Shown in pieces: positions 4,057-21,535 of a stretch of 25,887 nt of DNA. This DNA comes from a virus. Taxonomy: Duplodnaviria > Caudoviricetes. The stretch spans positions 1 to 25,887 of the IMG/VR virus record IMGVR_UViG_3300020282_000017; one strand, 5' to 3'. Made by a program: the position numbers and the translations under genes. Each line of letters begins with the position of its first letter. Within the stretch, counting starts at the first letter, position 1. Below the pieces are notes generated by a model that saw only the letters and a program-made list of their open reading frames with translations, was not told the origin of the DNA and ran no database searches.

Positions 4057-4773
4057 ATGCCTTTACCAACAATTTCTACACCAACTTATGAGTTGGTTCT
4101 TCCTTCCTCTAATAGAAAAATTAAATACAGACCATTTCTAGTAAAAGAAGAGAAGATTTTAATTATTGCCTTAGAATCAGAAGATCAAAAACAAATTGCC
4201 AATGCTGTTAAAAATATCTTATCAGCGTGTATACTGACGAAAGGAACAAAAGTTGAGAAACTTTCTACCTTTGATATTGAATATCTCTTTTTAAATGTAA
4301 GAGGTAAATCAGTTGGTGAGCAAATTGAAGTAATGGTCACATGCCCTGATGATGGAAAAACTCAAGTTCCAATGTCAATTAATATTGATAGTATAAAAGT
4401 GAGTAAATCTAAAAATCATAATCCTGATATTAAATTAGATGATAAGTTCACACTTAGGATGAGATATCCATCATTAGATGAATTTATTAAGTCTAATTTT
4501 TCTGCTGAAAATATAAAAGTGGAAGATACATTTGAATTAATTGCATCATGTGTTGATCAAGTTTACTCTGAGGAGGAATCTTGGACACAGGAAGATTGTA
4601 CAAAGCAAGAGTTAGTTGAATTTATTGAGCAACTAAATTCTTCTCAATTTAAAGAAATTGAAAAGTTTTTTGATACGATGCCTAAACTTAGTCATAAAGT
4701 AAAGGTAAAAAATCCAAATACTAAAGTTGAAAGTGAAATTGTATTAGAGGGTTTAAACAATTTTTTCGCATAA
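4057..4773 (+). CDS. gp26: Baseplate hub assembly protein, T4 gp26-like
   Basis: MPLPTISTPTYEL.LPS, KYRPFLVKEEKILIIA, FDIEYLFLNVRGKSVGE, MRYP, FFDTMPKL, LEGL..FF. Confidence 0.92.
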   Translation: MPLPTISTPTYELVLPSSNRKIKYRPFLVKEEKILIIALESEDQKQIANAVKNILSACILTKGTKVEKLSTFDIEYLFLNVRGKSVGEQIEVMVTCPDDGKTQVPMSINIDSIKVSKSKNHNPDIKLDDKFTLRMRYPSLDEFIKSNFSAENIKVEDTFELIASCVDQVYSEEESWTQEDCTKQELVEFIEQLNSSQFKEIEKFFDTMPKLSHKVKVKNPNTKVESEIVLEGLNNFFA

Positions 4774-4803
4774 GTATGGCACATGAAGACCTAGTGTCAT
4801 ACT
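4747..4803 (+). promoter_or_regulatory. Putative -1 programmed ribosomal frameshift cassette joining gp26 to gp51
   Basis: GAGG (4747-4750); in-phase heptamers T_TTA_AAC (4752-4758) and T_TTT_TTC (4761-4767); hairpin AGTATGGCAC/GTGTCATACT (4773-4782/4794-4803); the -1 frame is open into gp51. Confidence 0.65.
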
Positions 4804-4955
4804 ATAAACTGAATTTTGCCTTGATGCAACACCATAAATATAGTTTGACGGAGCTTGAAAATATGATACCATGGGAGAGAGAAATATATGTCTCTTTGCT
4901 CCAACAACATGTAGAAGAGGAAAATTTAAAAGCACAACAAGAACGTAATGGATGA
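4776..4955 (+). CDS. gp51: Baseplate hub assembly catalyst, short gp51-like (59 aa, missing from the ORF track); possibly made mainly as a gp26 frameshift fusion
   Basis: Hand translation: MAHEDLVSYYKLNFALMQHHKYSLTELENMIPWEREIYVSLLQQHVEEENLKAQQERNG*; the NFALMQHHKYSLTE.ENMIPWER.IY motif is the cyanophage gp51 signature. It overlaps the next ATG by 8 nt. Confidence 0.92.
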   Translation: MAHEDLVSYYKLNFALMQHHKYSLTELENMIPWEREIYVSLLQQHVEEENLKAQQERNG

Positions 4956-6672
4956 GGAACAGACTTTAGCATCACCGATAGCAGGAGGAATTAACGCTGT
5001 TAGAAGAAATATGTCTTCTGGACTTTTTGGTTCACGAAGACAAAATCAGGTGCCACAGTCAGATTCAATTACAACTAATTTACTAACAAATCAGTCATTA
5101 GAATTAAAATCAGTATCAAGACAATTAGAAGTTATATCCAACCAGATGACAAATATTAATGCCTCATTGAGTGGTGTTAAAGAAAGTTTGGCTCTATCTG
5201 ATTCAATTGATAGACAAAGAGAAAGGGCAAAACAAAATCGTGAAAGAATATTAGCGGAGCAAGGATTAAGAGAAGGAAAGGAAAGTGAGTTAGAGAAAAA
5301 AATACAAACTGCATTAGTGAGTCCAATAAAAAGAATTGGTGAAAAAGCACAGGGAGTTTTATTTAATTTTCAAAAATTCTTTTTATTGCTTGCAGGTGGT
5401 TGGTTAACAAATGTTGGAATTGATTTGATCAATGCTCTTGTTACTGGCAATACAGATCAGATTAATAAACTTAAGAATAAATTCACCATTGGATTAGTTG
5501 CCATAAGTGGCACACTAACTGCTCTCAACGTTGGTATTAAAACCATCTTTAGATTATTAAATGTTTTTGTTGGTAGTGTTGCAAGATTTGCATTTGGTGG
5601 TTTTGTCGGAAATACTTTAGCAGGATTAAGACTATTTTTAAGGAATATTGCAGTAAAAGCTGGTTTGGCAGCAGCAGGAGGAGGTTTTCTTGGGGGCACT
5701 ACAGCAACTGCTGCTGCATCTGGTATTGCTGGTGGTTCCATAGCATCTCGTTTTGTAAAAGGAAAAACCCTTAGTAAAATACCAGCAAACAAAATAGTCA
5801 ATTTTACCCGCACACCAGCATTGACTGGAGCAGGATTTGGACAAAGATTTTTACCACCGAACGCAGCATCACGAGTGACAGTTGGATCTGGAAAGAGTGG
5901 GTTTCAACTTTTTAGTGAAGGTGCAGATAAAATAACTGCAGCAGGTAAAAAAGGTATATTCGGTAAATTACGACAATCGGGAGCAAGTTTTAGTAAATTA
6001 ATGACAGGTGGAGGAGCAACAGCATCCTCAAAAATAATTACAGAGGGAACAGAGAGAGTAGCGAAGAAAGGTTTGATGTCCGCATTAAAAAAATTCGCCT
6101 CTAAGGGTTTAGGAAAATTTTTTAAAGGTTTTGGACCAGTAGGTGCTTTAATAGAATTTGCTATCAATTTGTCACAAGGAATGGGAGTTGGAGAAGCTTT
6201 AGTTGAAATTGCAAGATCATCTGCATTATTTGCAATAGGTCAAGCTTTGATACCAATTCCATTTGTTGGTGGAATGATAGGTATATTTCTTGGTGATCAA
6301 TTATTAAATTCGTTTGGTAAATTAATACAAAATGTTTTTGGATTTAAATTACCGAAAGCGATAGTTGGTGATATTGATGGGGGAAGTAAAATTGAAAAAA
6401 TATTAGGACCTGATGATTATGAAATGAGACCAATTTCTTCAACAGAGGATAATATTTCTGCAATATCAAATAATAATGATAAAATTGCGGATAATTTAAT
6501 AGAGGAAGATTCTTCCTCTGTAGCAGTAATTCAAGCTCAAGGTGGGGGAGGAGGAGGTACGTCAGCACCCCAAATGACTGGTGGTAAAGAACCTAATGCT
6601 TTACCTTCGATAGCTTTTAATACAGGTAATCCTCATACATTATTTGCTGTATCACAAATAGGGGTGGCATAA
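4948..6672 (+). CDS. Putative tape-measure / baseplate hub protein (T4 gp29-like position)
   Basis: 574 aa; N-terminal coiled coil, long Ala/Gly/Lys-rich amphipathic and hydrophobic stretches (GQALIPIPFVGGMIG); directly after gp26/gp51. Confidence 0.6.
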   Translation: MDEEQTLASPIAGGINAVRRNMSSGLFGSRRQNQVPQSDSITTNLLTNQSLELKSVSRQLEVISNQMTNINASLSGVKESLALSDSIDRQRERAKQNRERILAEQGLREGKESELEKKIQTALVSPIKRIGEKAQGVLFNFQKFFLLLAGGWLTNVGIDLINALVTGNTDQINKLKNKFTIGLVAISGTLTALNVGIKTIFRLLNVFVGSVARFAFGGFVGNTLAGLRLFLRNIAVKAGLAAAGGGFLGGTTATAAASGIAGGSIASRFVKGKTLSKIPANKIVNFTRTPALTGAGFGQRFLPPNAASRVTVGSGKSGFQLFSEGADKITAAGKKGIFGKLRQSGASFSKLMTGGGATASSKIITEGTERVAKKGLMSALKKFASKGLGKFFKGFGPVGALIEFAINLSQGMGVGEALVEIARSSALFAIGQALIPIPFVGGMIGIFLGDQLLNSFGKLIQNVFGFKLPKAIVGDIDGGSKIEKILGPDDYEMRPISSTEDNISAISNNNDKIADNLIEEDSSSVAVIQAQGGGGGGTSAPQMTGGKEPNALPSIAFNTGNPHTLFAVSQIGVA

Positions 6673-8045
6673 TGACAGTACAAAGACAAAGAAATTCATT
6701 AAGAAGGTCGTCAATAAGTATTAATGTAATACGTAATTCTGTATCAGGATTATCAAAAGGATTATTAAATATTGGAAAAAGAACAAGTGAAATATTAAAA
6801 ATAACAAGGGACTCAAATTTATTTAAAAAAACTTTAAATCGAAAGGATGATAATTTTTTTCGTAAAAGAAGAGAAAATGTAGCACGAAAACAAAGAGAAG
6901 ATGAATTAGAGGCTGCATCAGTAACAGGTGTTGCAAAAACAAAGGGTAGTTTGATACAAAAAAGCACGAGAGGATTTTTTGGAAGAATTTTAAATTTTTT
7001 AGGAGTGCTATTATTAGGTTGGGCACTAGAGAATTTACCTAAATTTATTAATGCGTTCCAAAAATTATTCAAACTTATAACTAAAGTAGTTGGTATAATG
7101 AGTGGTTTTATAAAAGTCATTACAGGTTTTCTTACTGCAATAGGAACAGGAATTGCAAATTTTCTTGGTATCTTTACAAAGATAGATTTCGCTGAGAGTG
7201 CAAAAAAAATACAAGAACTAATACAAAAAGGAGCGAATGGTTTAGTAAAATTAAATCAGGAATTTTTATCTGGTATTGCAGGATTTTTAACTGATGAACA
7301 AATAAGTGGTGCTGCGTTAGAGGGAATAGAAAGTGAAATAGGCACATCTGCATCTCAACAGGAAGGAGTAGAATTTGAAGGGAGACCCATTGATACTGAA
7401 GAAAATCAAGAAAATGAAGAAATAGAAACAAGAGATAATGGTGGGGATGTTGTTAAGGGAGAACCATATTTAATAGGTTTAAATCCGATGACTGGAAAAC
7501 CTGATGAGAGAACAGAGACATTTTTTCCAGATAGTGATGGTTTCATAGCAAGTAACAAAGATACAACTGACTTAATACAAGGTCAAGGAACTAATGTAAA
7601 CGATGAACAACTATCTCAAACTATAAGTAAAGAAGATGCAATCAAGGAGAGTGATAAATTTGTTAATGATTCATTAGAGGGTGGAATTGAAACATTACTA
7701 GGTTCAAATAAAAATCCTCAAAAAAGTAATGAAGAATTACTTCCAAAAAATGAGTTTGAAAATAGCATTAATGACGCTAACAAATTTTTTAATAAGTCAG
7801 GGAAAAATAAAATACAGGCAAAAATAGATGAGGAAGTAACACCGACTAAAAAAGAAATTCCAAATTTAAAGAGAAATAATAAAAAAAATAAAAATCAAGT
7901 TATAATTGTTGAAAAAATAGTAAGTACACAATCTTCATCCACTCCTGTAGTAAATAGTAGTACAAGTTCAATACCTTCAACAAAAAAGTCAGATGTATCG
8001 ACTTTTTTACAGTTTCAAAGTGTAAGTAATCTAAAGTACACCTAA
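6672..8045 (+). CDS. Second tape-measure-like virion protein
   Basis: Coiled coil ending RKQREDELEA, then FFGRILNFLGVLLLGW and amphipathic repeats; a TRDNGGDVVKGEPYLIG...ETFFP..DGFI motif like those in tape-measure C-termini; TAATG overlaps on both sides. Confidence 0.5.
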   Translation: MTVQRQRNSLRRSSISINVIRNSVSGLSKGLLNIGKRTSEILKITRDSNLFKKTLNRKDDNFFRKRRENVARKQREDELEAASVTGVAKTKGSLIQKSTRGFFGRILNFLGVLLLGWALENLPKFINAFQKLFKLITKVVGIMSGFIKVITGFLTAIGTGIANFLGIFTKIDFAESAKKIQELIQKGANGLVKLNQEFLSGIAGFLTDEQISGAALEGIESEIGTSASQQEGVEFEGRPIDTEENQENEEIETRDNGGDVVKGEPYLIGLNPMTGKPDERTETFFPDSDGFIASNKDTTDLIQGQGTNVNDEQLSQTISKEDAIKESDKFVNDSLEGGIETLLGSNKNPQKSNEELLPKNEFENSINDANKFFNKSGKNKIQAKIDEEVTPTKKEIPNLKRNNKKNKNQVIIVEKIVSTQSSSTPVVNSSTSSIPSTKKSDVSTFLQFQSVSNLKYT

Positions 8046-20947: not shown

Positions 20948-21535
20948 ATGTATGATCAAACAATTAATAAACCTGAAGTCTTTTTAAATAGAGATTTTAT
21001 TGGAGTGTGGGATAATGTCATAAAAGATGATTTTTGCAATTTTATTAAAAAAACTCTTGATGAGTCAACACAGATTGTACTTAGAAGTAATACAAGTGTT
21101 AAAGATACGCAATTAGATATAGCAGCATTTAACCCATTGATATCTGCTCACATTATGTGTGCGGTCAGGTCTTGTTTAGTGGAGTATATTGAATGGTATC
21201 CATTTTTAAAAAATTTTAATTATCATAGCACCACTTGTTTACTGCAAAAAACAGAACCGACTGAGGGGTATCATGACTGGCACTCAGAGTCAAATAATAT
21301 CGCTTGTGCTAATAGAACTTTGGTTTGGTCAGTATATTTCAATAATATTGATGATAGTGGTGAGACAGAGTTTTTATATCAAAAACAAAAAATAAAACCC
21401 AAAGCAGGTAGAATAATAATTTTTCCAGGTTCTTTCACTCACTTACATAGAGGAAATCCACCATATCAATCAAAATATATCGCTACTGGTTGGCTAGCGA
21501 GTAATGATATGAATGTTCCAACCACCCTACTGTAG
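20948..21535 (+). CDS. 2-oxoglutarate/Fe(II)-dependent oxygenase (prolyl-hydroxylase-like family)
   Basis: GYHDWHSE (Hx[D/E]), RTLVWSVYFN, GETEF, PKAGRIIIFP, THLHRGNPP, KYIATGW double-stranded beta-helix motifs. Confidence 0.92.
   Translation: MYDQTINKPEVFLNRDFIGVWDNVIKDDFCNFIKKTLDESTQIVLRSNTSVKDTQLDIAAFNPLISAHIMCAVRSCLVEYIEWYPFLKNFNYHSTTCLLQKTEPTEGYHDWHSESNNIACANRTLVWSVYFNNIDDSGETEFLYQKQKIKPKAGRIIIFPGSFTHLHRGNPPYQSKYIATGWLASNDMNVPTTLL

Follow-up and report, generated by a model that had tools for sequence, protein, structure and literature searches.

The question raised by this locus is whether its gp26-like gene and the small "gp51" frame behind it encode two separate proteins, or whether a programmed -1 frameshift joins them into a short and a long form of a tail assembly chaperone (TAC). 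The window, by which we mean the whole stretch of 25,887 bases analysed here, is a virus record of about 10% completeness with T4-like baseplate and tail genes. Its closest records by gp26 are those of the marine virus AG-345-F15 (72%) and of Synechococcus phage S-SM2 (66%), which makes a cyanophage of the Kyanoviridae its likely source. Among the tail fibre genes of the window there is also a 2OG-Fe(II) oxygenase gene (20948-21535), of a kind that is ordinary in cyanophages.

The gene order at the locus is a tube-type gene, gp26, gp51 and a long gene (Table 1); the upstream neighbor belongs to a tube family (phrog_45, PF23849) and is annotated as gp54-type in some relatives. The 3' end of gp26 reads GAG GGT TTA AAC AAT TTT TTC GCA TAA, with the stop codon at 4771-4773. 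The ATG of gp51 (4776-4778) lies 2 nt past this stop in the -1 frame; that frame is already open 34 nt upstream of the gp26 stop, and slippage is predicted to give a product of 237 + 62 = 299 aa. Both parts are homologous to the T4 gp26/gp51 family (PF12322, phrog_150, phrog_634), with the -1 extension matching phrog_634 (E 2.7e-28), positions 239-280 of phrog_150 and residues 207-246 of T4 gp51. The initial annotation had proposed just such a fusion from the letters of the DNA, and the GAGG, the phased heptamer, the 10-bp hairpin, the -1 frame gp51 and the 299-aa fusion product that it described all proved to be in place, base for base. A promoter and terminator scan returned no signal above chance.

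Table 1. Coordinates in the window of the features discussed in the text.
Feature	Position	Strand	Remarks
gp26-like gene, short tail assembly chaperone form (TAC-N)	4057..4773	+	238 aa; PF12322 E 1.6e-76; phrog_150 positions 5-232
Internal Shine-Dalgarno (SD)-like site AGAGGG, likely shift stimulator (predicted)	4746..4751	+	GAGG at 4747-4750, 10 nt before the heptamer
Slippery heptamer T_TTT_TTC	4761..4767	+	X_XXY_YYZ phase (TTT 4762-64, TTC 4765-67)
-1 frame extension, C-terminal domain of the predicted long form (TAC-C)	4767..4955	+	62 codons, of which the annotated 59-aa "gp51" makes up all but the first three
RNA hairpin (predicted)	4773..4803	+	10 bp with one G-U, 4773-4782 paired with 4794-4803; AUG in the 5' arm
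Presumed tape measure protein, putative client	4948..6672	+	574 aa, directly 3'; weakly supported

A phased heptamer in a single genome could be due to chance: the 14 plus-strand genes of the window hold 72 of them in 7330 codon positions, with T_TTT_TTN accounting for 7, and the significance of the motif accordingly lies in its conservation. We assembled 191 loci, the window included, the first 80 being the best 80 of 600. Eighteen rows were left out, seven with a gp26 cut by a contig end and 11 without a detected small domain; the latter comprise two contig ends with the same junction, seven T4-type loci, the locus L098 and Vibrio phage D531. One of the six seeds of the small-domain profile was mis-framed, and the matches to this profile were checked by their peptides. 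At all of the 173 loci with both parts the small domain lies in the -1 frame of gp26, rather than in the random frames that the initial annotation had named as a refutation, and T_TTT_TTY is retained even where identity to the window is as low as 20%. TTT is invariably the first Phe codon, and the TTC TTC pair against which the same annotation had warned does not occur. When clustered at 90% identity, T_TTT_TTY is present in all 98 representatives as against 36.6 expected from the codon use of their own genes (TTTTTTC in 88, TTTTTTT in 10). At 50% clustering it is seen in 26/26 against an expectation of 7.8, in a set that includes the pelagiphage HTVC008M and phages of Sinorhizobium, Aeromonas, Vibrio, Stenotrophomonas and Acidovorax; as the loci are related to each other, all these counts overstate their independence. 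Seven additional isolates, six of them cyanophages, uniformly show T TTT TTC.

The exception is Vibrio phage D531 (L084:2200-2440), whose gp26 ends in CTT TTC AAG TAA without a full heptamer. Its gp51-like -1 frame is open and has a Met of its own, perhaps reflecting a slip by a single tRNA or a lost shift. An HTVC008M-like gp26 with an early stop (L098:1201-1690) is probably a sequencing error. The second Phe codon is TTC in 88 of the 98 representatives despite the preference of gp26 bodies for TTT (623 vs 286), a bias that may serve to adjust how often slipping occurs, to limit the T run to six or to preserve the Arg of the -1 frame. The zero frame continues for 0-1 codons beyond Phe-Phe in 93/98 and for 8 codons in three loci (L112, L138, L154).

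A natural control is provided by T4 and 11 relatives, in which the long form has a gene of its own, gene 51, on the strand opposite to gene 26. T_TTT_TT is missing from the gp26 end in all 12 of these two-gene phages, and the seven that retain Phe-Phe use TTC as its first codon; an additional T4-type contig (L094) reads G TTT TTT. In 11/11 cases the long gp51 is matched by the gp26 profile as well as by that of the small domain; as the gp26 profile absorbed T4-type gp26 on iteration its match is not fully independent, and PHROGs agrees with it, in that T4 gp51 covers positions 13-280 of phrog_150 and the two parts from the window cover 5-232 and 239-280. The long gp51 of T4 thus combines a gp26-like part with the small domain, so that nature offers a single-gene counterpart of the predicted fusion, and the phages with this counterpart lack the slip signal.

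An examination of the region after the shift bears on the status of the annotated gp51 start. The first 16 post-shift codons of 17/98 representatives include neither ATG nor GTG nor TTG, and the first start that is available in them leaves only 34-55 aa and loses conserved residues. Counting against a reading in which only the fusion is made, 69/98 representatives do carry an ATG soon after the shift. Among cultured cyanophages, ACG-2014f combines the heptamer with both ATG and hairpin, and S-RIM2 and P-TIM40 have the heptamer but not the ATG. The column of the window's "start" Met, at position 4 after the shift, holds Met in 60 and Leu in 33 of the 98; this mostly Met-or-Leu column suggests that Met 4776 is likely an internal hydrophobic residue of the predicted long form. 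No weight was given to the I/V/L at the second post-shift position, which the stop codon of gp26 dictates. These observations also allow the annotation of such loci to be corrected: none of the 14 one-locus isolate records examined joins both frames, and several of them carry a truncated "gp51" of 45-48 aa from an internal Met or miss gp51 altogether.

Upstream of the heptamer, the 12-nt stretch 7-18 nt to its 5' side ranks first among 180 in-frame positions for anti-SD pairing. The Glu codon of this site is GAG in 68 of 79 cases, as against 133 of 529 other gp26 Glu codons that precede G; the signal is weaker in the 50% set, with GAG in 9/12 and GAGG or GGAG in 12/26. Comparison of synonymous codons shows that the predicted SD-like site is under selection.

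The hairpin, which begins 5 nt 3' of the heptamer, has a predicted stability of -12.5 kcal/mol. Its z-score is -3.1 in the 4768-4815 interval, where 3 of 200 shuffles are equally stable, and falls to -1.9 and -0.7 in longer intervals. The initial annotation had suggested looking for a 3' stem preserved by compensatory changes across T4-like cyanophages and pelagiphages; such a stem is borne out in the near clade, where the hairpin outdoes synonymous recodings in 54/56 representatives and contains a covarying pair, and not in distant relatives (7/42), most of which do not have it, making it a feature of the near clade rather than of the family. In 50 distinct rows the covarying pair is U-A in 24, G-C in 11, A-U in 10 and unpaired in 4, with both of its sides changed in 22; none of 500 shuffles reaches this value, and slid controls fall far lower. 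The G-C state requires at least five changes on the starred branches of a quick gp26 tree computed without bootstrap. Such double-sided change is found in only 2 of the 10 hairpin pairs, and the compensatory changes alter the gp51 amino acid (Val/Glu/Ala). Of the near representatives with the ATG, 53/55 fold at -10 kcal/mol or below, and in one near relative (L061) the AUG is lost and the hairpin is absent. The position of the AUG inside the hairpin, together with this relative that has neither, raises the possibility that the hairpin may block free gp51 synthesis, either alongside or instead of stimulating the slip. It is conceivable, though we hold this fuller scenario only tentatively, that the cyanophage-like clade has a three-part dnaX-style signal, whose hairpin both drives the slip and hides the AUG, arose together with the Met and was kept by compensatory changes.

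Independent of the frameshift, the fold of gp26 points to the function of the short product. In comparisons of its AF2 model (pLDDT 88), residues of about 1-95 recovered as the top three of 48,161 chains 3FGX (Z 8.0), the HK97 TAC 2OB9 (7.4) and 3KLU (7.2), at an rmsd of ~4 A over 85-86 residues, followed by chains at Z 5.4 and 4.1; Z values of 7-8 are in the range where the tool warns of matches without kinship. The HK97 fold is matched to gp26 residues 1-91, and all three top chains are called TACs in the accessible text of PMC9603447. Foldseek searches of the PDB with the same model gave nothing at E<=0.001 (E-values of 2.0 and 2.3), and a profile sequence search of the PDB with gp26 gave no match. 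With three members of one family heading the list, we assign a TAC fold to the short product with moderate confidence, as a model-based prediction. Together with the architecture of the long T4 gp51, it lends support to the chaperone role originally proposed for gp26 and its fusion. The remainder of the protein, residues ~88-237 (4318-4770), shows weak matches to zinc-ribbon-like folds (LysW and ribosomal L33-like chains, Z ~3.4); a C-terminal CxxC is found in T4 and several relatives, and the gp26 of the window is without it.

The presumed client is the gene directly downstream, which the initial annotation had called tape-measure-like. The 574-aa protein has no family match and falls in no named Atlas cluster, and no similarity to T4 gp29 was detected. 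What stands of the earlier description is a set of weak matches: two out of its 20 homologues reach tape-measure PHROGs, at E 1e-3 to 8e-3, and the protein matches the gene at the same position in S-SM2 (E 5e-5), which in turn matches tape-measure PHROGs at E 2e-5. Hence its identification as tape measure and chaperone client is a putative and weakly supported one. The adjacent long genes at 4948-6672 and 6672-8045 are weakly alike over their N-terminal ~200 residues (pairwise E 6.5e-4), and may both be tape-measure-like paralogues; S-SM2 likewise has two long genes here.

From the conserved sequence features described above we consider it very probable that one locus is the source of two tail assembly chaperone forms, a short one of 238 aa and, through a programmed -1 slip, a predicted long one of 299 aa. 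Two tRNA-Phe on UUU in the P site and UUC in the A site would re-pair one base back, onto UUU UUU. The SD-like site 10 nt to the 5' side would raise the slip rate, as would, within the present clade, the hairpin 5 nt to the 3' side, while most ribosomes would terminate at the UAA at 4771. In lambda the short form acts on the tape measure and the long form recruits tube subunits, at a ratio of 30:1 (PMC5009743). By analogy, the tape measure protein may, as it emerges, become covered with many copies of the short form, and the less abundant long form may recruit tail tube subunits through its C-terminal domain. The hairpin likely also prevents Met 4776 from starting a free 59-aa protein.

The records in GenBank, which carry two CDSs, instead suggest two separate genes, with the 59-aa gp51 starting at ATG 4776 by coupling to the gp26 stop, the hairpin serving as the gate of this coupling and no fusion being made. 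This is consistent with the position of the ATG, which in the window as in most near relatives lies 2 nt past the stop, and with the co-occurrence of hairpin and ATG seen in all but two of the ATG-bearing near representatives and in L061. However, it leaves unexplained the invariant heptamer, its loss in the two-gene phages, the relatives without a start and the covalent long form of T4, and the GAGG is too distant, at 25 nt, to serve this ATG as an SD; we regard it as very unlikely. A fusion could also arise by transcriptional slippage, with the RNA polymerase inserting one U on the T run, since the signal is itself a T run, one additional U gives the same frame, and seven T are present in 10/98 representatives. 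Transcriptional slippage usually requires roughly 8-9 T. The run is six T in 88/98, below the usual length, and the phase of the heptamer, the SD-like site and the spacing of the hairpin suit a ribosome, leaving this mechanism with a slightly smaller chance still. The sequencing runs were compared as contigs only, and a single RNA run shared any words at all, at a fraction of 0.04. Least probable, to the point of being negligible, is an assembly or sequencing error in which the loss of a T split a single 299-aa gene. The searches did retrieve eight fused proteins, 290-302 aa in length (P0001, P0002, P0015, P0017, P0018, P0022, P0030, P0031); being on one contig each, several with disturbed junctions as from homopolymer errors, they are probably such errors themselves and were not counted as natural fusions, though some of them may be true ones. 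The error is refuted by the conservation of the split form at 173/173 loci, in cultured isolates and in 8000 proteins near 238 aa, and the T run is free of indels in contigs of three runs.

A different kind of objection accepts the frameshift and questions the role of its products, which would be assembly factors or subunits of the baseplate hub rather than tape measure and tube chaperones. T4 gp26 and gp51 are listed as hub assembly chaperones, and genetic evidence that places gp26 in the hub is mentioned (PMC3004832); in addition, the ~140 residues of gp26 beyond the TAC-like domain have no good solved match. On the other hand, the N-terminal fold of gp26 matches TACs, the genes run in the order tube-type gene, gp26, gp51 and long gene, and in T4 the tape measure, gp29, is a component of the hub as well (PMC3004832), so that the two descriptions largely coincide. 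We therefore consider a purely hub-related role unlikely, and retain the chaperone pair made by frameshifting as the preferred reading.

Set beside known systems, this uncultured phage is one more example of an arrangement that appears to have been described already. Vladimirov, Gautam and Davidson (Virology 2022;566:9-15) reportedly identified the TAC genes of T4-like phages; their abstract is said to name genes 26 and 51 and to describe the shift as conserved in several T4-like groups. In what is accessible of papers citing that work, poly-T sequences in the TAC-N genes of T4-like phages are given as established signals for a -1 shift and credited to it (PMC12846349), and some T4-like phages are described as having, instead, one gene for the short form and another for the fused long form (PMC10885494). 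This is the arrangement seen here. The initial annotation did not know of such a description for T4-like cyanophages; the frameshift principle appears to have been published for T4-like phages in 2022. No cyanophage-specific report was found in the literature searched, which took in few subscription journals, and the accessible parts of PMC11526630 and PMC12859696 hold nothing further on the question; the stimulator layer, comprising the clade-specific hairpin that covers the AUG and the selected SD-like site, may be unpublished.

One counterpart is T4, whose gp26 (208 aa) is homologous to that of the window (pairwise E 4e-7, phrog_150), and whose gp51 (249 aa) is equivalent to a gp26-like part plus the domain that the window encodes at 4776-4955. 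T4 differs in having two divergent genes and no slippery heptamer; its gp51 is required yet not found in the particle (PMC3004832).

The three-part design of SD-like site, X_XXY_YYZ heptamer and downstream stem-loop resembles the signal of E. coli dnaX (PMC6771820), in an unrelated gene. The codons differ between the two systems, the slip predicted for the window being on Phe-Phe. The dnaX site is A_AAA_AAG, read by tRNA-Lys, with an SD-like site at a spacing of 10 nt and a shorter protein as the product of the shift. Lambda G/GT slips at a Gly-Lys site; the window further differs from it in a short form of 238 aa with ~140 extra residues and in the presence of the SD-like site and hairpin. 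In common with lambda gpG/gpGT, it has a -1 shift, predicted to occur at low level toward the 3' end of the short gene, a predicted C-terminally extended form and a next gene presumed to be the tape measure (PMC5009743). At all 173 loci the two frames overlap and the slippery site close to the 3' end of the first one is conserved, as in chaperones of the G/GT type. The 2016 review, as far as its accessible text goes, names T4 as the exception to the tail frameshift (PMC5009743); the findings described here support a common logic of tail assembly in phages of the T4-like and lambda-like kinds.
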